From: Candidatus Micrarchaeia archaeon
GTDB lineage: Archaea; Micrarchaeota; Micrarchaeia; Micrarchaeales; CABMGC01
Assembly (NCBI GenBank): GCA_049976845.1
Contig: JBMFHL010000002.1
Coordinates: 1-41,430, forward strand
DNA length: 41,430 nucleotides
Direction: 5' to 3'
The translations under genes were made by a program, and so were the position numbers. Below, one piece after another: positions 1 to 17,049 of this stretch (position 1 is the stretch's first letter; every line of letters begins with the position of its first letter). The notes under the pieces are model-generated. The model saw only the letters and a list, made by a program, of their open reading frames with translations. It was not told the DNA's origin and ran no database searches.

Positions 1-1800
1 GTGGAAATGCAAGTTTATCTTTCCAAAGAGCCCTAATATCTCTTCCTTCTGCACGCTCACATGCACTTTCTTCGACGGCGGGAAGTTTGGTACATCTATA
101 TAGTATTCATCGCGCGTTGGCGCCTTCAAAACCAAATTGAGAACTACTATAATTATTATTACTATCGCGAATTCTATGTAGTATATAGGTATGTGCAAAA
201 TCTCCTTTATATAAGATGTCGAATAAGTGTAACTTGTCTTAAACATGTTTATGTCAAATGTCTGTTTTCCATAATTTGTAATGCTCCCTTTCGGAAGCTG
301 ATATACTATCGTTCCGTCGCTTGTAATACCAGATTCGTTGTAGCCGCCGTTCAGGCTTATGCTGTATGTACTGTTTGTTACAGGGATGCCCATGCTAGTA
401 ATGCTAAATACAAAAGTACCATTTTTGAAGTCAAGCGATATAGGGTTTATATCTATACCTGCGAGATAAAATAAGCTCTCTGCATAAGGTCTGTTGTGAA
501 AATCCCTTAACACAGCAATATAATATCCATTTGGCATGGCGAATGACTGGTACTTTATTATGTTAATGCCTGTGCTTGCGTTGAAGAAGCCTATTGGCAC
601 AGAAGCAACAAAGCTCATATTTTCATCGTATAAGTCTATATGTGGCTCTACAAGCTGCTTCTGCGAAGCGTTTATGTTCATGCTTATAACCAACGGCACA
701 GTCTGTGTTTCTGCAACTGTGCTAGGAATGCTAAGGGTACCATTGGTAGAGAATAAAATTTTGAAGGGTATGCTCTTTATGGTAAAATTGGTGTAGTTAT
801 ACGCCGTTATGCTTATGAAAGGATATGCACTATCTATGCTAGTGCCATTTTGATATGTAATATACTTTTGAAGTGCAAGCAAACCTAAATATCCAGAATT
901 GTATGGTGCTGTTAAATTATATGTGCCATATGCAAGGCTCTGGATCCAGAACCTGTCATACAATGCCAATGAAATATCCCTTGCCATTGCACTTGCATTG
1001 CTCCATGCATTAGTTGGCAGATTAGCAAAGGCTATAAGCGTGCCGTTTAGCGAGCTTGCATAGCTTATTGAATAAAACCTATTGGCAAGCGAGAAAGTAG
1101 GATTGCTGAAATAAAAAGAGCTGTAATTTGAGGATCCGCTGCCTTGATAAAGATTATAGCCGTTCAGTAAGGAAATAGTTGATGGACTCGTCTGAAATAT
1201 TATTGATCCGGTGCCAATGCTTCTTGAGAAGTTGTCTCCTACATATACTACAGTGTCCCCCTTCTTCAGCAGGCTAATTAGGCTCTCGTTGTATGAATAA
1301 CCGCTGTTGGGCATCATTACCTCAGGGAGAAGCCCAGTTGCTAATATTACTGTCGAATTGTCAGGTATGCTGTTGATATCATTTATATTCACTGTGCTGA
1401 ACCTCTCATACTCAAGCAAGCCATACCTGGCAAGATAATACCTAAGCCCATTTTCGACATCATTGTAATTGAAGCAGTCATAGCACATGCTTGGGCTTTC
1501 CACAAAGTAAATATTACTCAACGGGTTCTTCTCATATACATTGAAAGTGAAATTGGCGCTAATGGTGTTTGATGAGGAATAGCTTAGAAGGGCATAAGGC
1601 ACAAGCCAATTATCCTTGTCGTATGAAAGCATGAGCGAGTTTATCACGCTTGCATTGAATACAGGCTTGCCGTATACTACACTGCTGGTAATTGGGGCTC
1701 TAAACTGCGCATGCACGTATAATGAAAGGCCGTATAAAAAAATTCCCAGTACAAGCAAAATGGCAATGATGATTATGTAAACCCTCTTTATCTTAGCCAT
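1..1800 (-). CDS. Membrane-anchored extracellular, probably N-glycosylated protein; N-terminus complete, C-terminus cut by the window edge
   Basis: Absent from the ORF track because it runs off the window. Reading the minus strand from ATG 1800-1798 (MAKIKRVYIIIIAILLVLGIFLYGLSLYVHAQFRAPITSS...), I checked every in-frame triplet down to position 1 and found no stop (600 codons). It has an N-terminal hydrophobic anchor or signal. A long Asn/Ser/Thr/Tyr-rich middle carries many N-x-S/T sequons. A second hydrophobic helix (YIEFAIVIIIIVVLNLVL, about nt 124..177) lies near the edge. The + strand ORFs 61..474 and 536..796 are its antisense shadows. Confidence 0.8.
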   Translation of the reverse strand, partial: MAKIKRVYIIIIAILLVLGIFLYGLSLYVHAQFRAPITSSVVYGKPVFNASVINSLMLSYDKDNWLVPYALLSYSSSNTISANFTFNVYEKNPLSNIYFVESPSMCYDCFNYNDVENGLRYYLARYGLLEYERFSTVNINDINSIPDNSTVILATGLLPEVMMPNSGYSYNESLISLLKKGDTVVYVGDNFSRSIGTGSIIFQTSPSTISLLNGYNLYQGSGSSNYSSFYFSNPTFSLANRFYSISYASSLNGTLIAFANLPTNAWSNASAMARDISLALYDRFWIQSLAYGTYNLTAPYNSGYLGLLALQKYITYQNGTSIDSAYPFISITAYNYTNFTIKSIPFKILFSTNGTLSIPSTVAETQTVPLVISMNINASQKQLVEPHIDLYDENMSFVASVPIGFFNASTGINIIKYQSFAMPNGYYIAVLRDFHNRPYAESLFYLAGIDINPISLDFKNGTFVFSITSMGIPVTNSTYSISLNGGYNESGITSDGTIVYQLPKGSITNYGKQTFDINMFKTSYTYSTSYIKEILHIPIYYIEFAIVIIIIVVLNLVLKAPTRDEYYIDVPNFPPSKKVHVSVQKEEILGLFGKINLHFH

Positions 1801-1824
1801 GCAAATCATTAAACAAAATAATTA

Positions 1825-1980
1825 TTAGACAGAACCTTCTCCCTTTTCTTTCATAATATACTTATCAATAAACTTTGCAAACTTTTTTGATATAACATTG
1901 GTATTCTCATTCACGCGCTTCACTACCCTATACACTTTGATGTTCCTTATCCTCTTGTTTATCTTTGCATAATACTTCAT
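1825..1980 (-). CDS. Small basic protein (51 aa), hypothetical
   Basis: Sub-threshold ORF not in the track: ATG 1980-1978, MKYYAKINKRIRNIKVYRVVKRVNENTNVISKKFAKFIDKYIMKEKGEGSV, stop 1827-1825. It begins 2 nt after the stop of the upstream gene (coupling geometry). It is strongly Lys/Arg-rich. No family recognised. Confidence 0.3.
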   Translation of the reverse strand: MKYYAKINKRIRNIKVYRVVKRVNENTNVISKKFAKFIDKYIMKEKGEGSV

Positions 1981-1982
1981 TT

Positions 1983-2711
1983 CTATCCCTTGAATTCCAA
2001 GTAACCTAAAGACACCATCTTGTTCAGTATCTGCTCTACCCTGGGCGATGTGATCTTGTAAGTTTTTGCGAATTCATCCACATCTATTGAACTATTGTGG
2101 GATTCTATCCAATCCTGCACCATAGCCATTAACGATTCGTCAGAATAAGTCTGCAGGGCGCTCAATTGCTCGTTTAGCTTCTTGTTCTCCTCATTCAGCT
2201 GTGCAGTTTGTATGGTAAGGTTCCTTGTAGATGCCGTGAGTTCTATATTTAGCCTCTTTATCTCCCTGTATTCATTTAGCAGTGAATCATATCTGTTGAA
2301 TAAGGTGCTATAATCCTGCGAAAGACCATTGAGAACATCATCGATAGCAGAGTCCACATACTGGTAAAATTTGCTTTCATCTATTTTGCAGTATTCAGTG
2401 ATAAGTGCAAGCAAGCCCACAAGATTCTTCAGGACAAAAAGCCTCCTGAGTTTTAAGCTGGTGTCTGGTGCAATCGAATAGACAAGCTCAATACCATTTT
2501 CGCTTATGGTTATTATGTAAAACAAAAAAGGCTTTTTGTGGATGTCGCTGCTCTCAACCCTAGCAAGCACAAGCTTGCCATTTTCTATCTTTGTAGAATA
2601 TATAGAAAGCTGTGACACCTTGGCCATTATATCTTCAAGCTTGCCTGTAAGCTGCCCTGCAAACGCAATCTCTTCCACTTTCGGAGTAATTATTCCCTCT
2701 TCTCCTGCCAC
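1983..2711 (-). CDS. Cytoplasmic coiled-coil protein with C-terminal winged-helix/HTH-like domain
   Basis: ORF track. GTG start at 2711-2709 preceded by a GTGGT SD-like element. Heptad-rich centre (LNEYREIKRLNIELTASTRNLTIQTAQLNEENKKLNEQLSALQ). The C-terminal ~45 aa (IDVDEFAKTYKITSPRVEQILNKMVSLGYLEF) has a wHTH-like pattern. No TM segments. Family not recognised. Confidence 0.7.
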   Translation of the reverse strand: MAGEEGIITPKVEEIAFAGQLTGKLEDIMAKVSQLSIYSTKIENGKLVLARVESSDIHKKPFLFYIITISENGIELVYSIAPDTSLKLRRLFVLKNLVGLLALITEYCKIDESKFYQYVDSAIDDVLNGLSQDYSTLFNRYDSLLNEYREIKRLNIELTASTRNLTIQTAQLNEENKKLNEQLSALQTYSDESLMAMVQDWIESHNSSIDVDEFAKTYKITSPRVEQILNKMVSLGYLEFKG

Positions 2712-2794
2712 TCAACCACTTCAATAATCAATACCCAATCAAACCCTTCTAGATATGCAATATTCAATTACCTGCTAATATATAAAATTCTTTA

Positions 2795-3160
2795 TTATAC
2801 CTTCTTTTCTGCAGATTTTGCCTCCTTTAGCTTTGGCATATAATTCAAGAGGGCGAAGAAATACATAAGCAAGATTACAAACAAGCCTAATATAAATGTG
2901 TCAAGTTTGAATGAGAGCAAGAGCCCGAATGCAAGGAAGAGTATGCCAAGTATAAGGTAAAGCGCTAGCCTCTTTTCAAATCGGGACCTGTACTTCGTGT
3001 ATTTTGGGTAGCATTCGCTGCATACTACAAGTCTGTTGCCCTTTTCATTCTTTGTTACATTCTTCTTAAGCCACCTTATGATTTTTATGACGTTGCCTTC
3101 TTCTACCTCAGTGCCATACTTCTTTTTGCCACATATTATACAATAGCCTTCTTTATCCAT
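2795..3160 (-). CDS. Zinc-ribbon membrane protein
   Basis: N-terminal CxxC...CxxC (CIICGKKK ... CSECYPKY) followed by two hydrophobic helices (LALYLILGILFLAFGLLL; FILGLFVILLMYFFALL). Starts 4 nt after the upstream stop. Confidence 0.7.
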   Translation of the reverse strand: MDKEGYCIICGKKKYGTEVEEGNVIKIIRWLKKNVTKNEKGNRLVVCSECYPKYTKYRSRFEKRLALYLILGILFLAFGLLLSFKLDTFILGLFVILLMYFFALLNYMPKLKEAKSAEKKV

Positions 3161-3164
3161 TGGC

Positions 3165-3470
3165 TTACCCTATACTCAATTCAACTACTCTGCCATAAGC
3201 TTCATTTATCTTCTCTTCGTCAAGCGTATTCATTATATCTGTTATCCTTACGTCATCAATTCCTATGCGCCTGAAAACATTAATTATGTCGTCTTGCCTT
3301 ATACCTATCTTCTGCAGCAACCCTGCAAATGCTATTGCATTCACATGCCTATGCATCTTGTTAAGCTCTGCCTCTAAATTATCTATGTTAATCTCGCTTG
3401 CACCTAAAAGCGTGAGTGTCTTCCTAAGCTCCAACCTATTTACTGTAAACGTTTCTCCCATTATAGACAC
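3165..3470 (-). CDS. Small helical protein, standalone paralog of the C-terminal domain of the adjacent ATPase
   Basis: Residues AIAFAGLLQKIGIRQDDIINVFRRIGIDDVRITDIM align without gaps to the ATPase C-terminus IKAFAQQLVQDGVDKQDIIQFLRYLGIQDVLISRVF (14 identities in 36 by eye). The ATG lies 1 nt after the ATPase stop. Confidence 0.75.
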   Translation of the reverse strand: MSIMGETFTVNRLELRKTLTLLGASEINIDNLEAELNKMHRHVNAIAFAGLLQKIGIRQDDIINVFRRIGIDDVRITDIMNTLDEEKINEAYGRVVELSIG

Positions 3471-5025: not shown

Positions 5026-5853
5026 TCACTTTTGGCTTGCGAACAAGCTCATAAGCTCATTCGTTGTAGTGGGCACAAAATAATTGAACTTGAAAAGCAA
5101 ATAAACCTCCCTGCCTACTACTCGCATTATGTTTATATCAAGGGCGTTGAACACCACTTGCAGTTGATTAAGCTGGTTGGAAAGTGAATCGATTGCAGCC
5201 TTTTCGCTAACTCCTACAGCCACAGTCTCAATGTACATAAGGCTTTGTACCGGCTTCTCTCCCATCGAAAGTCTATCTATCTTTGCCTGTGTTACTCTTA
5301 TCTGCCTTTGCAAATCATCTATGCCCATTTGGCTTGGGTTCTGGCTGCTCATCTCCTTTGAGAGCTTGAACTCCAACAAGCCAAGCTTGCCTTCCAGCGT
5401 TTCCCTATACTCTTGTATATCTTGCGAAAATACAATCAGGTTGTATTTGAAAGGGAACTTTATGCTCATCATTAGCCTCTCCCACTTTGATGGGGCCTCG
5501 CTTAGTTTCATATCCTCGTTCTCTTCAGCCTGCTCCATCGTAAATATATAGTTATAAAGGTTAGCAGTCAAATAGCCAGTCGCATAGTAAAGCCCATTGA
5601 CATTCTTTATAACGCAATTCTGGTGCTTTGGTATATAATAATTCTTGGCAGGCACTATTTTCATATTTAATATTATAGTAATAAGCGGGAAGAGCAGAAA
5701 ATCTGCATAATTTATAAGCAATATAAGCAAAATTGCAAGCACAGATATTACAACTATCGGAATCATAAATGCGCCGAAGCTGCCAGCTTGCAGCAAAGCT
5801 AGCAAAGCAACCATAATGGACGCAGCAAGATATACCATTGTCGTTTCATCCAT
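5026..5853 (-). CDS. TM-hairpin membrane protein with soluble alpha/beta plus coiled-coil domain (paralog of 5858..6688)
   Basis: Two to three N-terminal hydrophobic helices (aa ~8-65), then about 200 soluble aa. Shared blocks with the neighbour: YYATGYLTANLY / VYATAYVRIPVY; acidic patch EENEDMK / EMEDEERQ; KFPFKYNLIVFSQD / KSPIKISTQISVLNKD; late block IETVAVGVSEKAAIDSL / ISITAMGGNDEEAINMAL. A GTGATATT element lies directly upstream of the ATG. Confidence 0.75.
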   Translation of the reverse strand: MDETTMVYLAASIMVALLALLQAGSFGAFMIPIVVISVLAILLILLINYADFLLFPLITIILNMKIVPAKNYYIPKHQNCVIKNVNGLYYATGYLTANLYNYIFTMEQAEENEDMKLSEAPSKWERLMMSIKFPFKYNLIVFSQDIQEYRETLEGKLGLLEFKLSKEMSSQNPSQMGIDDLQRQIRVTQAKIDRLSMGEKPVQSLMYIETVAVGVSEKAAIDSLSNQLNQLQVVFNALDINIMRVVGREVYLLFKFNYFVPTTTNELMSLFASQK

Positions 5854-5857
5854 AATA

Positions 5858-6688
5858 TCACAGTGCCTGTTTCATGGTGTTCTCACTAATCTGCGCATTT
5901 ACAGTTGAAAAAGGTATAATATATTCAGGCTCAATTAAAAGGAAAATTTCTGGAGAGGAGATAATGTCCGCAACTACCCCATATATTGCTCCGATTCCGG
6001 ATGCAATCTCGTTAGCGTGCTGCAGAGCCATGTTTATTGCCTCTTCGTCATTGCCTCCCATTGCAGTTATACTTATATATGAAATTGAAGCAAGTGACTG
6101 CGACTTCGATATATTGTCAAGCAGGTTGTGCCACATGGTAACCTCTCCTTTTATCCTCTCAACAGATTCGGGCTTAGCCGCCTTGTCATTAGTAATAATC
6201 TGATACCTATTCTCCGCATCATTGAGCTTGTCCTTCACCTTATTTATATAATTATCCTTGTTAAGCACGCTTATCTGGGTGCTTATCTTTATCGGGCTCT
6301 TGCTCAACGAAACGACCCTGCTGAAAAGTGAAGAAAAATTCTGCCTTTCCTCGTCTTCCATCTCAGTCGAAGAATTGTAGACAGGTATTCGCACGTATGC
6401 AGTCGCATAGACAAAAGAATCGGAATGCGTGGTTATCACGTTGCCGCTTGGGGCAAGAATAAAAGGCTCATATTCACTAAGTACAATGCTTTTGTTCTTT
6501 GCATGCAGCAGCGGCATCAATATATAAGTATAGTAGCGCATTGAGAATGCAAGAACAGCGAAGATTATTCCTATAAGAAACAGGGTAAATTTCAAAACAG
6601 ATGCCGGAAAGCTTAGTGCAACAACCTCTAGAGCAAAGGCTACTGACAACATGACAACGAAGCTCATGAGCTGTGAATTTGATGCCAT
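5858..6688 (-). CDS. TM-hairpin membrane protein with soluble domain (paralog of 5026..5853)
   Basis: Same architecture and shared sequence blocks as 5026..5853 (see that entry). 4-nt gap to the downstream paralog. Confidence 0.75.
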   Translation of the reverse strand: MASNSQLMSFVVMLSVAFALEVVALSFPASVLKFTLFLIGIIFAVLAFSMRYYTYILMPLLHAKNKSIVLSEYEPFILAPSGNVITTHSDSFVYATAYVRIPVYNSSTEMEDEERQNFSSLFSRVVSLSKSPIKISTQISVLNKDNYINKVKDKLNDAENRYQIITNDKAAKPESVERIKGEVTMWHNLLDNISKSQSLASISYISITAMGGNDEEAINMALQHANEIASGIGAIYGVVADIISSPEIFLLIEPEYIIPFSTVNAQISENTMKQAL

Positions 6689-8968: not shown

Positions 8969-10102
8969 TCATATCACCTTCTTAAGCACATTGCTTCCAG
9001 TCAGCGACGGAGCACCAAGAAGGTCTCCGAAAGCCTCTACAATGTCTAAGCATATTATTAGCGATATTATTATTCCAATTACGTTTACAACGCTTACAGC
9101 TATAGTCTCCCCATAAGCCCCTATAATGCTTCCAAGAAATCCAGTAAGCAGCGTCCCAAAATCGCCGCTTTTTAGAGATGCAAGCGAATTCAAATTCGCG
9201 CCTGCGCTGAACCCGCTCTGCTGCGATGACATAGCAGTGCTTGCAGCCCCTGATATTGAAGCAGCTACTGATGCAAATGTATACAATAGTGCAGGGTAGA
9301 ACACATAGAATGCTATGAATAAGCCGAGCAATGCCCCTCCTATGGCCCTTGTCCAAGGGAAAGAGCGTAGTATTACACCGAGGAACAAGAAGAGAGGAAA
9401 CAAGAAGTATATTACCGCAAGGAGGAATGCGTTTGAAAGCTCTATGCCTGTTACCCCAACGACAACAAGCCCGAACGTATTGGTTGCCTGCGAAGCAGGG
9501 AAGATGCCTCTCATCGGCGCAAAAGAGATTCCAAAGCCGTTAGGAATGAGGTTTATTGTAAAGCTGCTTAAGCTTGTGAGTAAAAAGGACTCTATTGAAA
9601 ATTCTAATATATAGCCCACCTGCCCAACGGCATCGCTGTAATAATAACTACAGCTGTTGTAGAAAATGCCTTCTATGCTGGGCGTAGCAACTGTAGAGCC
9701 TGATATTGGGCTGCCCATCTGGGTTATCGCAACTACAGCCCCGTCTATGCCTGAAATGCCCCCAGCAATGAAAATTATTATTACGAAATTAAGCATGCTT
9801 TCCAGAGCTTCAGTCCTTGAGAACACTATTAGTTTGTCTATTTTGAAAGAGACCCCAATTACATAGAGCATGCTTATTATCATTAGCATTGCGAGTATTA
9901 TAAGAAGTGCATAGCTTATCAATCCTGTGTAAGTTGATACGCTCCTAAGCGCTGCAAATTCCCCTCCAATAGAAGTTGGGGTATTCATAAACATGCTCCC
10001 GCATGGATTTGTCGGAGAAGCGCTGCTTTGCGCACCAGCAATGCTTGGAAGCACAGCTAGCAACAAGATTGCAAATGCCACTATTTTATACTCAAGCTTC
10101 AT
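8969..10102 (-). CDS. Polytopic membrane protein, member 4 of six tandem paralogs
   Basis: Signal peptide MKLEYKIVAFAILLLAVLPSIAGA followed by NPCGS. Family motif LRSFPWTRAIGGALLGLFIAFYVFYPAL. C-terminal tail EAFGDLLGAPSLTGSNVLKKVI. 4-nt overlap with the upstream gene. Confidence 0.8.
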   Translation of the reverse strand: MKLEYKIVAFAILLLAVLPSIAGAQSSASPTNPCGSMFMNTPTSIGGEFAALRSVSTYTGLISYALLIILAMLMIISMLYVIGVSFKIDKLIVFSRTEALESMLNFVIIIFIAGGISGIDGAVVAITQMGSPISGSTVATPSIEGIFYNSCSYYYSDAVGQVGYILEFSIESFLLTSLSSFTINLIPNGFGISFAPMRGIFPASQATNTFGLVVVGVTGIELSNAFLLAVIYFLFPLFLFLGVILRSFPWTRAIGGALLGLFIAFYVFYPALLYTFASVAASISGAASTAMSSQQSGFSAGANLNSLASLKSGDFGTLLTGFLGSIIGAYGETIAVSVVNVIGIIISLIICLDIVEAFGDLLGAPSLTGSNVLKKVI

Positions 10103-11577
10103 ACAAGATTACCCAATCCTGCAAGGTTTGTGTCACCGCCAAGGAGCGAGGAGAGCCCCTTTATTGCCGTTATAAGTATAAGTATATTGAGCACTGGGAG
10201 TATATAACCAGTAACCCCTATTATACCGTATAAGTCTGTTAAGTGGAACACAAGCGCAAGTGCATTGTCTTGCGTGCATGCGGTTGGCATATACGGCAAG
10301 CTCCCAAATATGCCGCCTATGAATCCAAAGATGAAATCAATTGCGCCTGCCGCAGGAATGGCAAAGAATGCCGAGTCCTTCAGCTCTTCGACATAAAGAC
10401 CTCCAAAAGGCCAGCAGCCGTAATAATTTATTACATTGCTTACATTAGGGAATACATAGAAGTTTATGTCATTTGAATTGTAGACTACCTGTGCTCCTGT
10501 ATTGATGTTTTTTCCTGGCATGCTCAATATAGGTATGCTGTTGGAGTTAGCTCCTATAGGTATGAGGTTTGCCCCTCCTCCGTTGAGCGACGCATACTCC
10601 ATTAAGAAAATTATAGGGAATATTATGAGTGCGGCAATTACTATCGCGATCAGCGTTCCGCCTGCGCGCCTAGTATAAATGCTCGATTTCAGTATTATGC
10701 CTGCAGCAAGGAGATAAGGCCACGCAAAGAGAAATGTCAATATAATAAGCAGCTCTATCAAATATACATCAAATGCCAGATATGCTTCTACCTCTACAGG
10801 CTTCGTTATGCTCTTCAGCATCGCATACCCTGCGTACGGCGTATAAGAAAGGCTTATGCTTGTCAACCTCGGGTTAAATGGTATTATGCACAGCCAGCCA
10901 GTGAGCGGCGTCGCTTCATCAGCTACACAGAAGGTCGTTACAGGGGTAAGCGTGCTCAAAAATCCAATCATATCCTCGTATTGGTAAAAACCTTCAAGGT
11001 TCTGCGCCATCTGGCTTGTCAGGTTCGCAGTTATCACATAGCTTGCCATGAGGTCATAATCTGCATATCCAGTAATGTCTGAAAGGCCGTTGCCACTGCT
11101 TATGCTTGTGTATACATCATTTACCTCTGTGCATATAGTATTAGTTGGAGTAAAGGTAGAATATGATATGCTTCCAACATCAATGTTGATCTTATTGCTG
11201 TTGACCAAGTTAAGCGGGTTGTTCATCAACTGGTTGCACATATACTGCACGTTGTTGCCTATGCTGTTTGCAGCTATTGAGGTTACGCTGGCGCTGCCGA
11301 AGAAAGTAATAACTGCAATTACAATAACCGCTATAATTATAACTCCGATGACTTGATTCAGCTCCTCCACTGCCCTTGCCTTGACCTTGCTGTTATTCAA
11401 CACGCTGCCTGCAAAGTAAATCATTGCGACGATAAATATGCTTATTAGTATGGCAAGCATTAGTATGGGGGTCCAATTCTGGAATGTGCTATAGCTTGTC
11501 AATAAGCTGCTGCTCGCATTGGCTATTGTGGAGAATGCAACGAAGAAAGCAGCAATTAAAATTATTCTATTATTCAT
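10099..11577 (-). CDS. Polytopic membrane protein, member 3 of six tandem paralogs (largest, with extra extracytoplasmic insert)
   Basis: Signal IILIAAFFVAFSTIANA. W-x-P helix (NWTPILMLAILI). Roughly 170-aa insert with several Cys and N-x-S/T sequons. Family motif LKSSIYTRRAGGTLIAIVIAALIIFPII. C-terminal tail KGLSSLLGGDTNLAGLGNLV. Confidence 0.8.
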   Translation of the reverse strand: MNNRIILIAAFFVAFSTIANASSSLLTSYSTFQNWTPILMLAILISIFIVAMIYFAGSVLNNSKVKARAVEELNQVIGVIIIAVIVIAVITFFGSASVTSIAANSIGNNVQYMCNQLMNNPLNLVNSNKINIDVGSISYSTFTPTNTICTEVNDVYTSISSGNGLSDITGYADYDLMASYVITANLTSQMAQNLEGFYQYEDMIGFLSTLTPVTTFCVADEATPLTGWLCIIPFNPRLTSISLSYTPYAGYAMLKSITKPVEVEAYLAFDVYLIELLIILTFLFAWPYLLAAGIILKSSIYTRRAGGTLIAIVIAALIIFPIIFLMEYASLNGGGANLIPIGANSNSIPILSMPGKNINTGAQVVYNSNDINFYVFPNVSNVINYYGCWPFGGLYVEELKDSAFFAIPAAGAIDFIFGFIGGIFGSLPYMPTACTQDNALALVFHLTDLYGIIGVTGYILPVLNILILITAIKGLSSLLGGDTNLAGLGNLV

Positions 11578-11581: not shown

Positions 11582-12724
11582 TCAACCCCATATATTGCTT
11601 GTTCTTATACCTAAGCCCCTTGTTAAAGCCTTTGACAGGCCAAGTGCGAAGCCTACTGTAAGAGCAAGGTCCAAAGCTACAAGGAATACTCCCTGGAATA
11701 GATACTCAGAGACCTCCTGTGCTATTGCGCCTATAGAGGCAGGCGCAAGTAAAATGTCCTGGAAAGATAATCCGTTTGATAACATTGTACCGTAGAAATC
11801 AGCGGGTATCTGTATTGGAAATCCGAATACAGTGTAGCTAGGATTGGAATTAAACAATGTGCTTTCAGAAAGTTGCTGTGTTGAATAGGCAAAAGGGTAT
11901 TCGTAAAGGTAAGGATTGCATGTGCTTGCGCCACCACTGCAGTAAAGCCAATTCATGACATACGAATTCATGACGAATGTGAGGGGATAAATAAAATAGA
12001 AGGCTATCGCCAACGCCAAGAACGCATCTGCAGTTTCCCTGAGCTTAGGACCCACGAAGGAGAGGCTCCTCATTATTATGGCCAAGGGGAGCACAATAGT
12101 TAGCGCAATAGCCTTTACTATGAAGAGCATAAGGAACTGCAGGAAGAGCATTCCAAAGGAAACTATTACGAATATATTGTATGAGACTACAGCCCCTGCA
12201 TAAGAATCATATACAGTCTCGACGCCAGAAGACAGTCCTATGCTAAAGTTGAAGATAGAAATGCTCATTGTATGGGATAATAAGCTCATAACGAAGCCCC
12301 CAACGAACCTGGCTATAATTCCCGCAATCGTAAACTCTATTGATACAGTGTATATGTGTGTCACAAGGTTGAGGCCATTTACAAAGAGAAGATTTGCAAG
12401 ATAATACTGCGCCGCTGCAAACGTGTCCATGCCTGAAATGCTATTGCTTATGCTGCATGATGTTGCGGCAAATGCGGCTATGACAAATATTATAAACAAG
12501 CTCGTTATTACCTGCATTCCCTCAAATTTTGCTATTGTCTTTATCTTCTCCCTTGCAGAAGCCGGCATCAGGTTTGAGAGTGCGTACAGAATTCCAGCTA
12601 TGGCAAAGAAGACTAGTACGACAAGCATGTTTATGCCTATCCAGTTGTTTGTGTTAACCCCTCCGCCTCCAATGGCGCACGTGTTAAATGCAAGCATAAA
12701 CAAATCCATCATATCATCTAACAC
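11582..12724 (-). CDS. Polytopic membrane protein, member 2 of six tandem paralogs (divergent motif)
   Basis: N-terminal NTCAIGGGG and NWIGINMLVVLV helix. The motif region MRSLSFVGPKLRETADAFLALAIAFYFIYPLTF keeps R-S-x-x-F and Y-P but lacks the GG. C-terminal tail LSKALTRGLGIRTSNIWG. Overlaps the upstream gene by 11 nt; an internal ATG at 12712 is an alternative start. Confidence 0.75.
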   Translation of the reverse strand: MLDDMMDLFMLAFNTCAIGGGGVNTNNWIGINMLVVLVFFAIAGILYALSNLMPASAREKIKTIAKFEGMQVITSLFIIFVIAAFAATSCSISNSISGMDTFAAAQYYLANLLFVNGLNLVTHIYTVSIEFTIAGIIARFVGGFVMSLLSHTMSISIFNFSIGLSSGVETVYDSYAGAVVSYNIFVIVSFGMLFLQFLMLFIVKAIALTIVLPLAIIMRSLSFVGPKLRETADAFLALAIAFYFIYPLTFVMNSYVMNWLYCSGGASTCNPYLYEYPFAYSTQQLSESTLFNSNPSYTVFGFPIQIPADFYGTMLSNGLSFQDILLAPASIGAIAQEVSEYLFQGVFLVALDLALTVGFALGLSKALTRGLGIRTSNIWG

Positions 12725-13910
12725 CTAACTTGCTTCCAAGGTTCATCCTTATAGTACCTCCAAGTGCCTTTGCGATGCTATCTATAATTGGGTAAGCAAT
12801 CATAAGGTCAAATATAAAAAGCATGAACTGCGCGAAGAGGTATATGAATGCGGGCGTTGTTATGTTAAGGCCATCATAAATGTTTGTAGTTGCGCCAACA
12901 TATGTGCCAATAGAAGAAAAGGTGCCCACTATGCCTCCTGCAATAGATACAATGCCACATATAAATGTGCCTAATATGCCTGATCCGGGCAAGCTGCACG
13001 ATAATACTGATTGTGGAATCACCTGCTGGCTTATTATGTTATTTACTGGCATGTTAAATACTACTATAAGTGTTGGATAGACTATTGCAAGGCCGATGCC
13101 GAAGGCAAATAAAGTTCCGCCTATGCCTCGCAGGAATGGGAATGCCCTGAACAATATGCCCAAAGGCATAAGCACCATTAAGCCTATGAAAATTATGAGT
13201 GGCATTAAATAATACTGTGCAACTACCAATAGTCCCATAGGTATGAGCAGGAATTGCATGTCATCATTCAATGCAGATTCATACTGTCCAGTGAACCTGT
13301 CTGTTTCAAGCATTGGGTTGTTGTATATAGAAAATTGAGAGCCGAAAGTGAAGGCGCCTATTCCGATAGGTATCGGTATCCACCATCCTATAGTAATGGA
13401 TCTCATGAATCCTATGCCGAGGCTAAGTCCTACAAGATCCTCACTAGCCTGACTTATACTATAGGAAGGCTGATCCGGATTGTTTTGAAAGTATATATTG
13501 CACAGCACAGTGCTTGCAGATGTGCCGAGCGAAGTAATTGCAGAACTTATGCCTCCTTCATTCTGTATGCCCGGCTGGCCTATAAGCGCAAGGGAAATAT
13601 TGCTTAGAAATACCAATATGCCTATTGAGCCCGCGATGAGCATGAACGATTTGCTCGCCTCCCAGAACTCCCCTTTGAGCCACGAGTCAAGCTTTGTGCC
13701 TGGAATTGTCTTGCTTATTATGAAGCCTATTGCTATCACAAGGAACGAGAGCATGAAAGCGAGAGCGAATACTGAGAACAATGAGCTTATGCCTATGTTC
13801 ATTGCAGCTATAGAGGGCAATGCCTCGCATGTACTCTGTGCGAAAATGTTGCCAGAGCCTGCAAAAAGTAAAAGAGTTGCAAAGGCAATTGTTAAATTCC
13901 TGGCGCCCAT
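12714..13910 (-). CDS. Polytopic membrane protein, member 1 of six tandem paralogs
   Basis: Signal MGARNLTIAFATLLLFAGSGNIFA followed by QSTCEAL. Family motif FRAFPFLRGIGGTLFAFGIGLAIVYPTL. C-terminal tail DSIAKALGGTIRMNLGSKLGVR. About 8 TM. Confidence 0.8.
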   Translation of the reverse strand: MGARNLTIAFATLLLFAGSGNIFAQSTCEALPSIAAMNIGISSLFSVFALAFMLSFLVIAIGFIISKTIPGTKLDSWLKGEFWEASKSFMLIAGSIGILVFLSNISLALIGQPGIQNEGGISSAITSLGTSASTVLCNIYFQNNPDQPSYSISQASEDLVGLSLGIGFMRSITIGWWIPIPIGIGAFTFGSQFSIYNNPMLETDRFTGQYESALNDDMQFLLIPMGLLVVAQYYLMPLIIFIGLMVLMPLGILFRAFPFLRGIGGTLFAFGIGLAIVYPTLIVVFNMPVNNIISQQVIPQSVLSCSLPGSGILGTFICGIVSIAGGIVGTFSSIGTYVGATTNIYDGLNITTPAFIYLFAQFMLFIFDLMIAYPIIDSIAKALGGTIRMNLGSKLGVR

Positions 13911-13946: not shown

Positions 13947-14678
13947 CTAATGCTTAAGGAGCGGAAATCTTTTCATATACGCCTCTGCCTGGAATATCAC
14001 GAAGTATGGCAATATAAACAAGGAGCTAAATAAAAGCATAGCATACCTCGAGTAGAAAGTGCCCAATGTGTATATGAAGAAAGCGTCAAAAAGCGTGAGG
14101 ACTAATATACCAAGCGCCAGCCATATTATGAAGTACTGGGGCTCCCTGAATATGAGTTTGGTGCTGTCTTTTATCGCCCTCCATATCTTCTTGTTGTCTA
14201 TCACTATGGCGCTCGGTGCATAGAATATAAATAGAAATGCCACGAAGCCGAATATAGATGTTACAATTCCCTGATAACCAATATAATATCCTATTATGTT
14301 GAATATTATAAGCAATGCAGCGTAGAATAAGAATACGATGAAAACCTTGCCGGTATACCTCTCTATACCCTCAAGCACGGACTTGGTTGTCTTTGCATAA
14401 GTCCTCTTCGATTTGACTATGAAAGATATTGCAACGAATGCGAAGCTCAAGAAAAGTAGGGAAAAGAACGAGGAAACCACAACAATGGCTATGCTCGCTA
14501 TATTCATATTCGTGAAGATGCTGGCAGTGCGCAGGAATGTTGATCCTGCAGTTATATAAGTAGGCATCGGTGCAAAAAGGGGTATTGCAAATGCTATTAT
14601 GAAAGGTATAGAAAACAGAAGGACAAGCTTGATATTTTCAACATAGGTCTCAAATGAGTTGTAAACTATATTCGCCAA
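13947..14678 (-). CDS. Six-TM integral membrane protein, hypothetical (first gene of the cluster)
   Basis: ORF track. The start is TTG at 14678-14676, with an AGGTG SD 5 nt upstream (aaggtgtttgcTTG on the minus strand). About six hydrophobic helices, no Cys, short basic loops. Family not recognised. Confidence 0.7.
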   Translation of the reverse strand: MANIVYNSFETYVENIKLVLLFSIPFIIAFAIPLFAPMPTYITAGSTFLRTASIFTNMNIASIAIVVVSSFFSLLFLSFAFVAISFIVKSKRTYAKTTKSVLEGIERYTGKVFIVFLFYAALLIIFNIIGYYIGYQGIVTSIFGFVAFLFIFYAPSAIVIDNKKIWRAIKDSTKLIFREPQYFIIWLALGILVLTLFDAFFIYTLGTFYSRYAMLLFSSLFILPYFVIFQAEAYMKRFPLLKH

Positions 14679-14752: not shown

Positions 14753-14764
14753 GTTATCTAAAAC

Positions 14765-16606
14765 CTATGCGCTGCTATTCCTTATCATGATAGGCTTGAA
14801 GAAATATATATAGCTGCCATTGTAGATTATCGCCTGCAAATATGTCATTTCATTTATTTTATTCATATTTATGACATAATGTCCAGTATAAGTGCCACTG
14901 CCATTCAGTATTATAATGTTTGGGCTAATAGTGTTGTTGCTTACATTTGCCAAAGCGCCATTCGTAAGCACAACGCCCCTTATGCCGTAAATAGCTGTTG
15001 AGCCATTGGTATAAGCGTCGATAAGCGTGTAGAAAGAATGCAGTTTTGAAGAGTAATCAAAAGTTACATTGTAAGTTATTTGTGTAGAGTTTGGCACCGT
15101 GTGCAGCGAATAGCTCTCGTTAAGTGCTGTTATTGAGAAACTTTTCATGTATATAAGGTGCATGAGCAAGATAAAAGCTATCATTGCAACTGCAATAGCA
15201 GCAATGGAAAACTCAAGTGCCCTTTTTTCTTTTTTTGTAATTTTGCGAGAGCCTTTCTTGTAGCTCATGTTCATGCTTATCAATAAGAAACCTATGAAGA
15301 ACGCATAGTACGGAGGGATTGCATGGTCAAGGAATGCAAAAGGGATGAGGCTGAAAAGTGCGGTAAGCCTCTTGTCATTAAAATATGCTAACATAAAAAG
15401 TGAAAGAAGTACCGCCAATCCAAAAAGGGTTGAAAAGGAATGCAAAGGTATCGGGTAAAACAGCGTCAATGCATAGCCTATAGGGGCATAGCTGTTTGGA
15501 AATATATATGAAGCTACGGGAAAAATTACATTATGCAGGAATGTGTGTGCATTTGCTATAATGAAAGGTGCATTGACTATTGCAAATACTAATATAGTAA
15601 GTGAAAGTTCCCTGAGTGCATTCCTGTAGCCGAAGTTAATAAAAGTATAAGAAATCAGTAACAGCACTGGTAGCCACAGCAGCTCCTGCATCGAGGCTGC
15701 AAGGCCCAGTGCAATCCAGCCGTATTTTTTGCCGGAAGTCGCATAGGCTATTACAAGCAACGCGAGCATTAGCGCCTGCACGGCCGAGCTCAATATTGCG
15801 AGGGCTATCAGTATGCCAACCGTTGCAGTAAATGAGAGCTTTTTCAAAACCTGGTCTTTTGCAAAATACCCTATTGAAAAGAAAAGTATGCACATACTTG
15901 CAAATATCTCAAGCTTCATCCCAGAATGCTTGAAGGCGCTGAAGCTGCTGTTCAGCGCAGCAAAGGGCACTCCAGAAATAGGATAAAGAGCAGGATAATC
16001 CAAAGTGCCAGCTATGCCATTTTCTGTGGTGAGCGTTACCGCAACGCTCGATAGCCTAGAAAACAGGAAGGAGCCATAATACTGCGCATAAGGATTTGAT
16101 AGATTTATAAGCGCCTTTGCAGAAAGGTACTGTATTACCACTTCATCGTCTGCACTCCAATACATTACAATATATGTGTAGTAGAATAAGAGCAGAACTA
16201 CCGCGAACGCAAAAAATATTATTGCAACAGTCTTTGCATTTCTAAACAGCTTCTTCTTGTATAAGAAGAATCCGAAGAAGACAAGGAAAATCACAGGCAT
16301 GTAGAAGAAGAACCAGATGAGCATGTTGTACAATATGCCAAAAGTGTTAGTAAGCGCCTTGGCTAAAGGCAAGTAGAAGAACTGTGCAACAACAAGGCAC
16401 AGTATTAATATTGGCATTACCTTGAGTGCCATATTCAAATTTCCGCCAAGCAGCAATACGACATAAGCTGAAAATACAGTGAAGGCGGCAAGAAACAATA
16501 TATTAACTATTGGGATATAGTAAAACAGCGGCAATATTGATATGCTAATTATAATTAGGAGTGAAGAAACGATAAGCAGGAAAAAATCAATATTGCTTAT
16601 TCGCAT
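14765..16606 (-). CDS. Large polytopic membrane protein with C-terminal extracytoplasmic domain; possible GT-C-type glycosyltransferase
   Basis: 613 aa with at least 12 hydrophobic helices. Acidic loop motif WSADDEVV after the first helices, the position where GT-C enzymes carry their catalytic Asp/Glu. A final TM is followed by a ~130-aa sequon-rich domain (NESYS, NSTQ, NVTF, NGST, NVSN, NGSG, NGSY). Family assignment is by architecture only. Confidence 0.65.
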   Translation of the reverse strand: MRISNIDFFLLIVSSLLIIISISILPLFYYIPIVNILFLAAFTVFSAYVVLLLGGNLNMALKVMPILILCLVVAQFFYLPLAKALTNTFGILYNMLIWFFFYMPVIFLVFFGFFLYKKKLFRNAKTVAIIFFAFAVVLLLFYYTYIVMYWSADDEVVIQYLSAKALINLSNPYAQYYGSFLFSRLSSVAVTLTTENGIAGTLDYPALYPISGVPFAALNSSFSAFKHSGMKLEIFASMCILFFSIGYFAKDQVLKKLSFTATVGILIALAILSSAVQALMLALLVIAYATSGKKYGWIALGLAASMQELLWLPVLLLISYTFINFGYRNALRELSLTILVFAIVNAPFIIANAHTFLHNVIFPVASYIFPNSYAPIGYALTLFYPIPLHSFSTLFGLAVLLSLFMLAYFNDKRLTALFSLIPFAFLDHAIPPYYAFFIGFLLISMNMSYKKGSRKITKKEKRALEFSIAAIAVAMIAFILLMHLIYMKSFSITALNESYSLHTVPNSTQITYNVTFDYSSKLHSFYTLIDAYTNGSTAIYGIRGVVLTNGALANVSNNTISPNIIILNGSGTYTGHYVINMNKINEMTYLQAIIYNGSYIYFFKPIMIRNSSA

Positions 16607-16630
16607 GCAATCTCATATGGATACAAAGGC

Positions 16631-16644
16631 AAAATATAAATAAA
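16631..16644 (-). promoter_or_regulatory. Putative TATA box for 14765..16606
   Basis: The minus strand reads tttatttatatttt, 25-38 nt upstream of the ATG at 16606. This spacing fits a leaderless transcript. Confidence 0.4.
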
Positions 16645-16650
16645 AGAAGC

Positions 16651-16675
16651 AAAAATGCAAATAAAAAAGAAAAAG
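16651..16675 (-). terminator. Oligo-T terminator tracts after the pilin-like gene
   Basis: On the minus strand, three T5-T6 runs (ctttttcttttttatttgcattttt) lie within about 30 nt downstream of the stop at 16683-16681. Archaeal termination typically uses oligo-T tracts. Confidence 0.5.
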
Positions 16676-16680
16676 AGAGT

Positions 16681-17049
16681 TCAGCAGCTTACTGCGCTTA
16701 TGTTGTTGCCAAACCCTGCCACCATGTTGACTACAGAAGGTGCAATTACTACTAGTATTATGCCTACTATGCCGCCTAGTATCATACCTAGAGCCCATCC
16801 TTGCATAGAGCCTTTAAGCTGGCCTGTTGTAGGTAGAAAGTGCGCTACAGCATAAAGCACGCCGCCAGCTAAGAACATCACCAGTGCAAATAGGGATATT
16901 ATGCTCCTTACAGTGCCGACTATGCCGCAGAATGTGGAGCTCAGTGTGGAAATTGAATTCACACTAGTCGAAGCGGCGCTTGCAAATCCTGTTATAACAC
17001 TTGCAAACAAAACGTAGTACATTACCTTCCATAAGTTCATTCCATTCAT
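16681..17049 (-). CDS. VirB2/TrbC-like pilin candidate (signal peptide plus two-helix hairpin)
   Basis: 122 aa. Signal MNLWKVMYYVLFASVITGFASA with an A-x-A site. Mature ~95 aa: short polar N-terminus, helix 1 IISLFALVMFLAGGVLYAVAHFL, polar/basic loop PTTGQLKGSMQG, helix 2 WALGMILGGIVGIILVVIAPSVV, short tail ending in Cys. This is the canonical layout of T4SS VirB2/TrbC and archaeal CedA1/TedC pilins. It has its own TATA box and oligo-T terminator. Confidence 0.6.
   Translation of the reverse strand: MNGMNLWKVMYYVLFASVITGFASAASTSVNSISTLSSTFCGIVGTVRSIISLFALVMFLAGGVLYAVAHFLPTTGQLKGSMQGWALGMILGGIVGIILVVIAPSVVNMVAGFGNNISAVSC

Follow-up and report, generated by a model that had tools for sequence, protein, structure and literature searches.

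A chromosomal gene cluster of Micrarchaeota that appears to encode a heavily remodelled relative of the type IV secretion machine

Seventeen co-directional genes on the minus strand of a Micrarchaeota contig (GCA_049967815.1) form one cluster, which fills positions 1-17049 of the window, the whole stretch of 41,430 nucleotides analysed here (Table 1). The cluster appears to encode a machine related to that of bacterial conjugation (type IV secretion, T4SS) but heavily remodelled, and we consider it about 75% probable that it is a chromosomally fixed, vertically inherited, T4SS-derived envelope machine of Micrarchaeota. Homology or fold relationships were found for four component classes, synteny extends across the phylum, and the chromosomal context is one of housekeeping genes. 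No earlier description of this cluster was found in the searchable literature, and it is apparently undescribed.

Table 1. Genes of the cluster, with window coordinates and the basis of each assignment
Feature	Coordinates	Strand	Basis
VirB2/TrbC-like pilin, 122 aa	16681..17049	-	Pfam matches of family, weak TrwL profile match, position
613-aa polytopic protein, sequon-rich C-terminal ectodomain	14765..16606	-	architecture, position
T6, 243 aa, ~6 TM segments	13947..14678	-	strongly conserved
P1, VirB6-like polytopic paralog, 398 aa	12714..13910	-	paralogy; positional orthologs in >20 loci
P2, VirB6-like polytopic paralog, 380 aa	11582..12724	-	paralogy, positional orthologs
P3, VirB6-like polytopic paralog, 492 aa, large extracellular insert	10099..11577	-	paralogy, positional orthologs
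P4, VirB6-like polytopic paralog, 377 aa	8969..10102	-	paralogy, positional orthologs
P5, VirB6-like polytopic paralog, 349 aa	7918..8967	-	AlphaFold2 model, Foldseek
P6, VirB6-like polytopic paralog, 387 aa	6747..7910	-	paralogy, positional orthologs
hpA, 276 aa, N-terminal TM hairpin + VirB4-N-terminal-domain-like cytoplasmic domain	5858..6688	-	AlphaFold2, Foldseek, hhalign
hpB, 275 aa, hpA paralog	5026..5853	-	BLASTP
VirB4/HerA-superfamily ATPase, 499 aa	3472..4971	-	Pfam, PDB profile match, motifs
h101, small soluble protein	3165..3470	-	homologous to ATPase C-terminal domain
Zn-ribbon (C7, C10 ... C47, C50) + 2-TM protein, 121 aa	2795..3160	-	sequence; CxxC...CxxC; found in 57 loci
C242, cytoplasmic: N-terminal domain, coiled coil, C-terminal winged-helix-like domain	1983..2711	-	profile matches
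s51, basic, 51 aa	1825..1980	-	conserved; same position in 25 loci
S800, bitopic, sequon-rich	1..1809	-	window edge cuts gene; first 603/778 aa in window

An earlier note on this DNA, made from the letters alone, had described a minus-strand array of at least fourteen genes starting at 14678. Every gene it described was found where it had placed it, and the measured intergenic distances reproduce its range of -11 to +86 nt, but the count is 15 up to 14678 and 17 with the pilin included; s51 was missing from its list. Housekeeping genes border the cluster, as it had noted: TopoVI-B, KH, aIF2-gamma, S6e and CDC48 at one end, Rpb4, DUF655, L21e and TBP at the other. The small host-dependent archaeon that it envisaged is a member of the Micrarchaeota (DPANN).

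The ATPase is soluble, lacking both a TM segment and an N-terminal domain, and its translation contains the motifs GITGAGKS, VVLDEAW and REGRKYQFGLIVASQNP, as previously listed. It matches the Pfam families DUF87 (1e-16), AAA_10 (1e-12) and P-loop_TraG (9e-9), exceeding the gathering scores of the latter two, and is far under every NCBIfam cut-off for VirB4, CedB, CedD and HerA. Against the PDB, the top match of the family profile is the VirB4 C-terminal domain 4ag5 (1.2e-22), aligned in one stretch spanning the entire domain, with HerA-like proteins nearly tied. Plasmid VirB4/TraC proteins are 22-28% identical to it, and no close phage relatives were found. The nearest outgroup loci, L081 and L083, encode VirB4-type ATPases (P-loop_TraG E=1e-26 to 1e-29) with PrgI/VirB3 elements and an adjoining T4SS pilin in both cases, and L081 also has a marginal match to the CagE_TrbE_VirB N-domain. 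An extra domain occupies the last ~80 residues (421-498), and h101, encoded directly downstream in a conserved position, is homologous to it (BLASTP E=1e-7).

The two TM-hairpin proteins are indeed paralogous (BLASTP E=1e-7 over 233 aa), and hpB was found in 73 of 83 loci. Related ATPases bear a membrane-anchored N-module as a fusion, and the hp family aligns with the N-module of these ~890-aa proteins with an hhalign probability of 98.5% (E=3.4e-15). Because of this homology, the VirB4-like motor is regarded as split into three genes. The hp sequence profile matches nothing in the PDB; in a Foldseek search with the AlphaFold2 model of hpA (pLDDT 83.5), TrwK/VirB4 accounts for each of the best 12 PDB matches (E 3e-3 to 2e-2, probability 0.87-0.99).

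Identity among P1 to P6 is 22-24%, and all six have the motif G-x-LLRSF-x-TR-x-GG...P, consistent with the earlier claim of six paralogs. A minor correction concerns the 7-8 TM segments proposed for these proteins: the AlphaFold2 model of one of them, P5 (pLDDT 81.9, pTM 0.77), has about six very long helices and a beta-hairpin in place of standard TM segments. The family sequence profile has no match in the PDB. The only strong PDB fold match of the P5 model is TrwI/VirB6, which provides its best two matches (8rt9_F, probability 1.00, E=0.017, 316 columns; 8rtd_L, probability 0.97), with nothing comparable after them. The fold matches of hpA and P5 are specific but weak, with Foldseek E-values of 0.003-0.06, TM-scores of 0.23-0.43 and none below E=0.001.

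The assignment of the 122-aa protein as a VirB2/TrbC-type pilin is borne out by its family: of 16 members, 12 match the Pfam model T4SS_pilin (best 1.8e-14) and 8 match TrbC/VirB2 (best 1e-10). The window protein itself, with a signal peptide, a helix-loop-helix and a conserved Cys41...Cys122 pair, stays under the T4SS_pilin gathering score (18.3 vs 26.6; E=0.0026), and the family profile matches TrwL at E=0.029. In other Micrarchaeota, homologs sit immediately upstream of the polytopic genes, as do one to five pilin genes in more distant lineages. The pilin profile also aligns (hhalign 81%, E=1.2e-5) with the polytopic family at its N-terminus and weakly matches the N-terminus of P2 orthologs (E=7e-7); the same relationship has been reported for VirB2/VirB6 and CedA1/CedA (PMC9905601).

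Among the remaining proteins, T6 (mean column identity 57%) heads the cluster in close relatives and in distant ones found via the pilin, and matches nothing in Pfam or the PDB. The 613-aa polytopic protein has no significant Pfam match, but is possibly a divergent GT-C glycosyltransferase, as the equivalent position in L088, L096 and L103 holds a PMT_2 glycosyltransferase of the same architecture (4e-12); in L020 its homolog lies inside the cluster, between P6 and hpA. C242 occurs in 69 loci, including five-gene minimal systems, and its C-terminus matches the winged-helix domain of 2xvc (E=0.002), alongside coiled-coil matches and weak Pfam matches to EAP30 and PCI. S800, 778 aa long in the source contig, combines a signal anchor, a ~570-aa sequon-rich ectodomain, a TM segment and a conserved cytoplasmic C-terminal domain, its best-conserved part; it carries 3.15 sequons per 100 aa, was found in 55 loci and has no match in Pfam or the PDB.

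The expectation that these genes would form a conserved neighbourhood in related genomes was confirmed across the phylum. The order T6-P1..P6-hpA-hpB-ATPase-h101-Zn-C242-s51-S800 is identical in >20 genomes, and the same genes recur in the same order in dozens of independent genomes, more than expected by chance. Order and content are kept across Micrarchaeota, always between housekeeping genes, and an independent scan anchored on the pilin found the same cluster. Five-gene minimal versions consist of a pilin, one VirB6-like protein, an hp protein, the ATPase and C242.

The cluster has the core logic of the Ced and Ted systems in an expanded and different composition, as the earlier note had it, and the likeness is one of logic only. 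Ced of Sulfolobales and Ted of Thermoproteales, which import DNA, are likewise chromosomal, domesticated and without a relaxase, and each has a VirB2-like pilin, a VirB6-like polytopic protein and a VirB4/HerA-like ATPase. Ced has two ATPase paralogs, CedB and CedD, each with part of the VirB4-like N-terminal domain (PMC11868833), a pair echoed by hpA and hpB; in Micrarchaeota the N-terminal module is detached as two membrane proteins, and there is consequently one motor protein, not two. The minimal version, whose pilin has 81 aa and no signal peptide, is very Ced-like in layout. Nevertheless, Ced is not orthologous, the ATPase scoring 58 bits for CedB and 68 bits for CedD against NCBIfam cut-offs of 700 and 600. 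Ced and Ted have one or two VirB6-like proteins rather than six, lack the conserved N...C cysteine pair of the pilin and the accessory proteins (T6, the GT-C-like protein, h101, the Zn-ribbon TM protein, C242, s51 and S800), and belong to free-living crenarchaea, whereas Micrarchaeota are DPANN symbionts.

Monoderm/archaeal conjugative T4SSs of the MPF-FATA class (e.g. pCF10 Prg/Pcf, archaeal conjugative plasmids), which L081 and L083 resemble, share with the cluster a VirB4-type ATPase with AAA_10 and P-loop_TraG, a T4SS_pilin (PF18895)-type pilin, a polytopic VirB6-like protein and a VirB3/PrgI-like TM hairpin on the N-terminal side of the motor, and likewise have no outer-membrane complex. 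Unlike them, the cluster lies off mobile elements and is missing a relaxase, a VirD4 coupling protein and a VirB8-like protein; its VirB4 is split and its VirB6-like gene expanded sixfold. The T4SS of Patescibacteria/CPR is also near phylum-wide, chromosomal and relaxase-free, occurs in ultrasmall host-dependent episymbionts, has VirB2-like pilins and is proposed to have been recruited for symbiosis (PMC12102498), but it is bacterial, with a full-length VirB4 nested in MPF-FATA and other accessory genes, and it shows neither a VirB6 paralog array nor a split motor. The R388 (Trw) inner-membrane complex and stalk is the only solved structure matched by both the hpA (TrwK/VirB4) and polytopic (TrwI/VirB6) models, and its TrwL is weakly matched by the pilin profile; sequence identity to the Micrarchaeota proteins is only 11-13%, and R388 is diderm, with VirB5, VirB7, VirB8, VirB9, VirB10, VirB11 and a homopentameric VirB6. 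No VirB8, VirB5 or VirD4 equivalent was recognised among the cluster proteins.

That the machine descends from a T4SS but has been repurposed for a task other than building a transfer pilus, such as secreting proteins or effectors into the host, adhesion only or envelope/S-layer biogenesis, is unlikely, though the most credible of the rival readings. Searches of the cluster proteins matched no relaxase, VirD4 coupling protein, VirB11 or integrase, in agreement with the earlier note, and among the many lineage-specific accessories are a large protein with a glycosylated ectodomain and a glycosyltransferase of GT-C-like type. A large subgroup of loci (ATPase ~50-56% identical) carries the hp-ATPase-Zn-C242-S800 module with no VirB6-like gene closer than 10 kb, and co-option for other functions has also been proposed for the chromosomal T4SSs of Patescibacteria (PMC12102498). 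Against repurposing, the pilin genes are closely linked and often present in several copies, the winged-helix protein is core to all versions and fits a nucleic-acid substrate, and DNA is what Ced and Ted, the nearest archaeal analogues, import (PMC9905601, PMC11868833).

An integrated conjugative or mobile element (an ICE or plasmid remnant) in place of a host-owned system is improbable. It is true that distant plasmid relatives of the ATPase, TraC proteins included, are mostly on conjugative plasmids (251/440 records), that Mia14 genomic islands have been suggested to be conjugative elements (PMC5498576) and that some genomes hold minimal second copies. However, close relatives keep the cluster at the same genomic position, with TopoVI-B and KH downstream; ATPase identity declines gradually over the recovered Micrarchaeota loci, from 92% (70-92% in close relatives) to 35%; no replication genes were found alongside the missing integrase and relaxase; GC content is uniform, with no anomaly at the cluster; and the sole tRNA of the window lies ~15 kb beyond it. 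Least credible, and very improbable, is the reading that a DNA-repair helicase of HerA type, or another cytoplasmic helicase, happens to lie beside unrelated membrane-protein genes. JGI names the homologs 'DNA helicase HerA-like ATPase' and HerA proteins rank first in a single-sequence PDB search, yet their alignments are limited to the Walker B-to-sensor half, whereas VirB4-type models span the whole domain. No NurA, Mre11 or Rad50 gene was found at this locus or in related loci, which upholds the earlier assignment of the ATPase to the secretion (VirB4-like) type. The membrane-anchored N-module fused to related ATPases and the phylum-wide conservation of near-overlapping co-directional genes further argue against such a helicase.

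For a T4SS-derived envelope machine, we infer stoichiometry, pilus formation, substrate and transfer direction as follows. A soluble, hexameric VirB4-type ATPase would be tethered to the membrane by hpA and hpB, which may represent a detached module made of a VirB3-like TM hairpin and the VirB4 N-terminal domain. This motor would dock beneath a platform or channel of six non-redundant VirB6-like paralogs, on which the Sec-exported VirB2-type pilin, pulled from the membrane, would polymerise into a pilus or conduit through the S-layer. T6, the GT-C-like polytopic protein, h101, the Zn-ribbon TM protein, C242, s51 and the putatively glycosylated bitopic S800 would be lineage-specific additions. 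The most likely role is contact-dependent transfer of macromolecules with the host cell, probably, by analogy with Ced and Ted, the import of DNA or other host material. The cluster is a strong candidate for how tiny, host-dependent Micrarchaeota cells connect to their hosts.

The cluster at positions 1 to 17049 of the window comprises 17 co-directional genes on the minus strand, spaced by -11 to +86 nt, which bears out the array described in the earlier note and extends it to the pilin-like gene upstream. The ATPase motifs quoted there are present in the sequence, as are two sets of paralogs: the transmembrane (TM)-hairpin proteins hpA and hpB (E=1e-7) and the six polytopic proteins P1-P6, which are 22-24% identical and share the core G-x-LLRSF-x-TR-x-GG...P. 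As was also claimed, the cluster abuts housekeeping genes on both sides. The edge gene, encoding the bitopic protein S800, reaches 778 aa in contig JBMFRZ010000005.1 (GCA_049967815.1, 65.8 kb), where it is followed on the opposite strand by genes for TopoVI-B, a KH protein, aIF2-gamma, S6e and CDC48. Upstream of the pilin gene lie MoxR, Rpb4, DUF655, L21e, TBP, a VTT-domain protein, Pelota and KsgA, and the GC content is even across the region.

Coordinates of the cluster genes and of neighboring features in the window
Feature	Position	Strand	Length	Description
Pilin-like protein	16681-17049	-	122 aa	first (upstream) gene
613-aa protein (B613)	14765-16606	-	613 aa	polytopic; C-terminal domain sequon-rich
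T6	13947-14678	-	243 aa	about 6 TM segments
P1-P6	from 12714-13910 down to 6747-7910	-		polytopic paralogs
hpA	5858-6688	-		TM hairpin
hpB	5026-5853	-		TM hairpin
ATPase	3472-4971	-	499 aa	P-loop ATPase
h101	3165-3470	-	101 aa	soluble
Zn protein	2795-3160	-		Zn-ribbon and 2 TM segments
C242	1983-2711	-	242 aa	coiled coil
s51	1825-1980	-	51 aa	basic
S800	1-1809	-		bitopic, sequon-rich; continues past window edge
MoxR	17125-18045	-		MoxR-type AAA+ ATPase
ORF	21717-22757	-	346 aa	no Pfam match
Giant protein	24350-30730	+	2126 aa	no Pfam match
ORF	30760-31680	+	306 aa	no Pfam match
tRNA-Ala (TGC)	32111-32182
ORF	32142-33917	+	591 aa	listed start TTG; no Pfam match

Several neighbors deserve mention in their own right. 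The MoxR gene (AAA_3, 1.7e-48) is located 75 nt upstream of the pilin gene and on the same strand. It does not adjoin the cluster in distant relatives, in which an Asp/Asn-tRNA synthetase precedes T6, and it probably stands outside the system. The giant protein, rich in Ser, Asn, Gly and Thr and with 33 sequons in all, has a signal peptide, a TM anchor at its C-terminus and a short tail of basic character; it is probably the S-layer protein or some other giant surface protein. The sole tRNA of the window overlaps the listed start of the 591-aa ORF, the real start of which probably lies further downstream.

The ATPase matches the Pfam families DUF87 (1e-16), AAA_10 (1e-12; 47.9 bits against a gathering score of 27.5) and P-loop_TraG (9e-9; 35.0 against 25.8), each above its gathering score. 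When a profile of its family (17 sequences) was compared with the PDB, the best match was the C-terminal domain of VirB4 (4ag5, 1.2e-22), with HerA-like proteins close behind. VirB4/TraC-type models align continuously over the whole ATPase domain, and HerA models and structures cover the half from Walker B to the sensor only. On these comparisons the protein is described as a VirB4-like member of the VirB4/HerA superfamily, and VirB4 membership in the strict sense is tentative. NCBIfam models for CedD, VirB4-like CD1110, HerA, CedB and TraC score 40-68 bits, far under their cut-offs, and the VirB4_CagE model scores 40 bits (cut-off 643). Of the earlier designation of the ATPase as VirB4/TrbE/CedB-like, the VirB4-like part is kept tentatively, and the CedB part does not extend to orthology, as the NCBIfam scores are 67.9 bits for CedD (cut-off 600) and 58.5 for CedB (cut-off 700). 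A phage origin was rejected, with only five weak, unannotated matches, as was a plasmid origin, with identities of at most 28%. The small protein h101 is a free-standing copy of the C-terminal helical domain of the ATPase (residues 421-498; BLASTP E=1e-7), and the tagging of some ATPase-sized ORFs as h101 in the locus map is an artefact of profile drift.

The two hairpin proteins appear to supply the part of VirB4 that the ATPase does not carry. Both begin with a 2-TM hairpin, and the AlphaFold2 model of hpA (pLDDT 83.5, from a 44-sequence alignment) has TrwK, the VirB4 of the R388 type IV secretion system (T4SS), as all of its top 12 PDB matches (E 0.003-0.02, probability 0.87-0.99). An exhaustive search of representatives further recovered proteins of ~890 aa in which a TM hairpin and a 270-aa domain precede the same ATPase, and this fused N-module aligns with the hp family (hpA, hpB and homologs) over 171 columns (hhalign 98.5%, E=3.4e-15). 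Based on these fold matches and this alignment, hpA and hpB are best described as the N-terminal module of a long VirB4-like protein that has become separate from the motor and is anchored in the membrane. Such a division of VirB4 into a motor and two membrane-anchored N-domain proteins is unprecedented. The hp family profile itself found no meaningful match among PDB sequences, only coiled-coil noise; its comparison by hhalign with the PrgI-bearing proteins of two outgroup loci (L081 and L083), in which PrgI (VirB3-like) is fused or adjacent to VirB4, was not significant. Metagenomic ATPases of mostly 810-910 aa were also collected (P0161, P0164, P0172, P0174, P0198, P0207, and P0167 with 689 aa). 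The three that were read (P0161, P0172 and P0174) run from a TM hairpin through an hp-like N-domain and the ATPase to a C-terminal region that, judged by eye, may hold a wHTH and a PD-(D/E)xK-type nuclease motif, e.g., DLVIDDRIDVEIETGE.

For the polytopic paralogs, a VirB6-like identity is indicated at the level of the predicted fold only. The AlphaFold2 model of P5 (41 sequences, pLDDT 81.9, pTM 0.77) has two TrwI/VirB6 chains as its best PDB matches, 8rt9_F (probability 1.00, E=0.017, 316 columns) and 8rtd_L (probability 0.97, E 0.065), with TM scores of 0.36-0.43 for the pair. The other matches are designed helical bundles (probability up to 0.82, E ~0.7 or weaker) and rhodopsins, and no natural membrane protein other than VirB6 comes near the VirB6 scores. 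The fold matches of the hpA and P5 models are specific, yet numerically weak. The polytopic family profile returned nothing but coiled-coil noise from PDB sequences and did not align significantly by hhalign with the polytopic proteins of the same two outgroup loci. The N-terminus of the polytopic family can be aligned with the pilin profile (hhalign 81%, E=1.2e-5), and such a relationship between pilin and polytopic protein has also been reported for VirB2/VirB6 and CedA1/CedA (PMC9905601). An array of six VirB6-like paralogs, each matched by its own positional ortholog in more than 20 related genomes, is likewise without precedent, and this one-to-one correspondence suggests that the subunits are non-redundant and probably hetero-oligomeric.

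The 122-aa protein had been proposed to be a VirB2/TrbC pilin, and this assignment holds for its family. Alone, the window protein reaches Pfam T4SS_pilin with E=0.0026 and 18.3 bits, under the gathering score of 26.6. When homologs gathered from related loci were aligned (alignment A3, 16 members), 12 of the 16 matched T4SS_pilin (PF18895, best 1.8e-14) and eight matched TrbC/VirB2 (PF04956, best 1e-10), so that the family, by sequence, is of the VirB2/TrbC type. The R388 pilin TrwL (E=0.029) is the sole pilin listed when PDB sequences are searched with the pilin profile at E up to 10. Pilins of the expanded systems have exactly two cysteines, the first behind the signal peptide and the second at, or close to, the very C-terminus (C41 and C122 in the window; homologs in L023, L025, L027, L034, L035, L071, L075 and L078), and the 81-aa pilins of minimal systems have neither signal peptide nor cysteine. 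Pilins with a conserved terminal cysteine pair are unprecedented as well. A C41-C122 disulfide would staple both ends of the helical hairpin together, in a possible analogy to the way VirB2/TrbC are cyclised head to tail.

Among the accessory proteins, C242 has, in addition to its coiled coil, a winged-helix-like domain at the C-terminus (2xvc, E=0.002). S800 consists of a signal anchor, a sequon-rich ectodomain (3.15 per 100 aa), a TM segment and a cytoplasmic domain that is well conserved; neither it nor T6, in which the mean column identity is 57%, has a match in Pfam or among PDB sequences. The 613-aa protein has no significant match in Pfam or PDB sequences either. In more distant relatives, the equivalent position is taken by a gene of the same architecture that encodes a PMT_2 (GT-C) glycosyltransferase, located between the T6 and pilin genes in L088 (7414-8934) and L103 (5149-6639), and in L020 a homolog of the 613-aa protein lies between P6 and hpA. 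The presence of these genes inside the clusters suggests that the system includes the glycosylation of its exposed components as an integral part.

Homologs of the ATPase with 70-92% identity, annotated as from Candidatus Micrarchaeota/Micrarchaeia MAGs, fall into more than 120 clusters when grouped at 90% identity. When the ATPase alignment was used to scan the GTDB representative genomes, it yielded 80 loci with ATPases 35-82% identical to that of the window, ~72 of which are titled Micrarchaeota, Micrarchaeia, Micrarchaeales, Micrarchaeaceae, Fermentimicrarchaeum or Anstonellaceae. All window proteins were mapped onto the ORFs of the loci. In close relatives the order T6-P1-P2-P3-P4-P5-P6-hpA-hpB-ATPase-h101-Zn-C242-s51-S800 is unchanged and every paralog has its positional ortholog, indicating that the neighborhood is conserved, as the earlier reading would predict. 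L023 (Fermentimicrarchaeum), L025, L027 and L052 have one or two pilin genes directly upstream of 5-7 polytopic paralogs, followed by the same downstream genes as in the window. A minimal version of five genes encodes a pilin of 81-130 aa, one polytopic protein, hp, ATPase and C242 (L060-L063, L079, L080). Counted over 83 loci with 10-kb flanks, a limit that hides upstream genes in many of them, hp is present in 73, C242 in 69, the Zn protein in 57, S800 in 55, a polytopic protein in ~40 and a pilin in 19. A metagenome scan anchored on the pilin instead (alignment A10) independently recovered the cluster: L088, L090, L093, L096 and L103 contain T6, PMT_2, 2-5 pilins, six polytopic proteins, two hp, ATPase, h101 and the Zn protein, and L113 contains three pilin genes, hp, ATPase, Zn, C242 and S800. 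Of all components the ATPase is conserved best, and the polytopic and ectodomain proteins evolve fastest, as expected of surface-exposed parts.

Some loci depart from this layout. In a large subgroup with ATPases 50-56% identical to that of the window (L030-L050, L056, L058, L076), the module is hp-ATPase-(h101)-Zn-C242-S800, mostly with a single hp gene (two in L034 and L056), and no VirB6-like gene lies within 10 kb; that gene may be elsewhere in the genome or absent. One to three pilin genes lie directly upstream of hp in L034, L035 and L113. Two genomes hold two diverged copies of the system, CAIKOA01 (L058, L063) and UBA10161 (L039, L067), with ATPase identities to the window of 53%/43% in one and 56%/38% in the other; in CAIKOA01 the second copy, of the minimal five-gene kind (L063), accompanies the large module (L058), and the second locus of UBA10161 (L067) has ATPase and C242 only. 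In the outgroup loci L081 (Iainarchaeum) and L083 (Methanosarcinales), a VirB4-type ATPase with P-loop_TraG (E=1e-26 and 1e-29) is accompanied by PrgI/VirB3 elements and adjoins a T4SS pilin, and the CagE_TrbE_VirB N-domain of L081 is marginal (E=4e-4).

Core parts of a T4SS, in four classes, are thus linked in a chromosomal housekeeping context, in an order that is kept phylum-wide. These parts and their linkage support the T4SS-related reading put forward earlier, and the probability that the cluster is a T4SS-derived envelope machine is estimated at about 0.75-0.8. An integrative conjugative element is unlikely because the flanks are syntenic, ATPase identity declines gradually over the phylum, the composition is even and mobility genes are absent. 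As the earlier note had stated, no integrase, relaxase, separate VirD4/TraG coupling protein, VirB11 or plasmid replication gene was detected when every cluster protein and the larger of the flanking ORFs were compared with Pfam and NCBIfam; TrwB_AAD_bind gave a single, sub-threshold signal (E=3e-4), on the ATPase itself. Pfam and NCBIfam likewise showed no VirB8-like bitopic protein. A helicase of the HerA-NurA type is unlikely because its partner genes are absent (NurA, Mre11 and Rad50 occur neither in the window nor in related loci) and the membrane N-module is fused to the ATPase in related proteins. The NCBIfam HerA models reach 54-60 bits against cut-offs of 800-970 and only over the C-terminal half. 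It is conceivable that a T4SS-derived machine has been repurposed for secretion, adhesion or envelope biogenesis.

Taken as a T4SS-derived envelope machine, the system belongs to the T4SS/Ced/Ted kind in a form that is new and heavily altered, specific to Micrarchaeota and widespread there. In the mechanism that we propose, an ATPase hexamer would be held by hpA and hpB beneath a platform of six distinct VirB6-like subunits, and the Sec-exported pilin would be pulled out of the membrane and assembled as a polymeric pilus or conduit that crosses the S-layer. S800 may serve as an adhesin or as an element spanning the envelope, with cytoplasmic coupling via the conserved domain at its C-terminus, C242 may be a receptor for the substrate or a factor that binds DNA, and the GT-C-like 613-aa protein may glycosylate exposed parts. 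By analogy with the DNA-import systems Ced and Ted (PMC9905601, PMC11868833), and because the symbiont depends on building blocks from its host (PMC8975820), the most likely role would be to import macromolecules, DNA or others, from the host. That the machine acts at the host interface is a tentative proposal.

No prior description of the cluster was found in the literature searched, the coverage of which was incomplete, and it may have been described elsewhere. For Mia14, the genome paper mentions type IV pili, Sec and Tat and nothing else of this sort (PMC5498576), and the words pili, secretion and ATPase do not occur in the paper on the A_DKE co-culture (PMC8975820). Cryo-ET of Micrarchaeon ARM-1 revealed 6.7-nm nanotubes between cells and, in the envelope of the symbiont, a 21-nm barrel (PMC11329633); the supplementary data of this cryo-ET/proteomics paper hold no DUF87, HerA, VirB4 or TraG entries. 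Together with such structures, the nearest conceptual parallels are the SPEARE proteins of Nanohaloarchaea, with VirB4/TraG-like domains (PMC10266531), and the chromosomal T4SS without relaxase of Patescibacteria (PMC12102498). The parallel with these ultrasmall bacterial episymbionts suggests that bacteria and archaea have convergently recruited conjugation machinery for episymbiosis.

In the evolution of T4SSs, the cluster represents a third archaeal lineage that was domesticated, in addition to Ced and Ted and very different from them. In cultivated Micrarchaeota, transporters are few and the biosynthesis of nucleotides and lipids is incomplete (PMC8975820), and the machine bears on how DPANN archaea acquire host DNA, lipids and metabolites, giving candidate genes to tag, localise, purify and model in the A_DKE, Mia14 and ARM-1 co-cultures. 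One speculative possibility is that the cluster encodes the symbiont-side apparatus of the host-symbiont connection in Micrarchaeota, in which a hetero-oligomeric ring of six VirB6 paralogs and a split VirB4 motor would import host DNA, lipids or metabolites. The same doubtful reading would cover the 'pili-like/filamentous connections' seen between ARMAN cells and Thermoplasmatales; in ARM-1 it might extend to the barrel-shaped 21-nm docking complex or to the 6.7-nm nanotube. If it is true, the system would be essential for the DPANN lifestyle, an archaeal counterpart of the essential T4SS of Patescibacteria.
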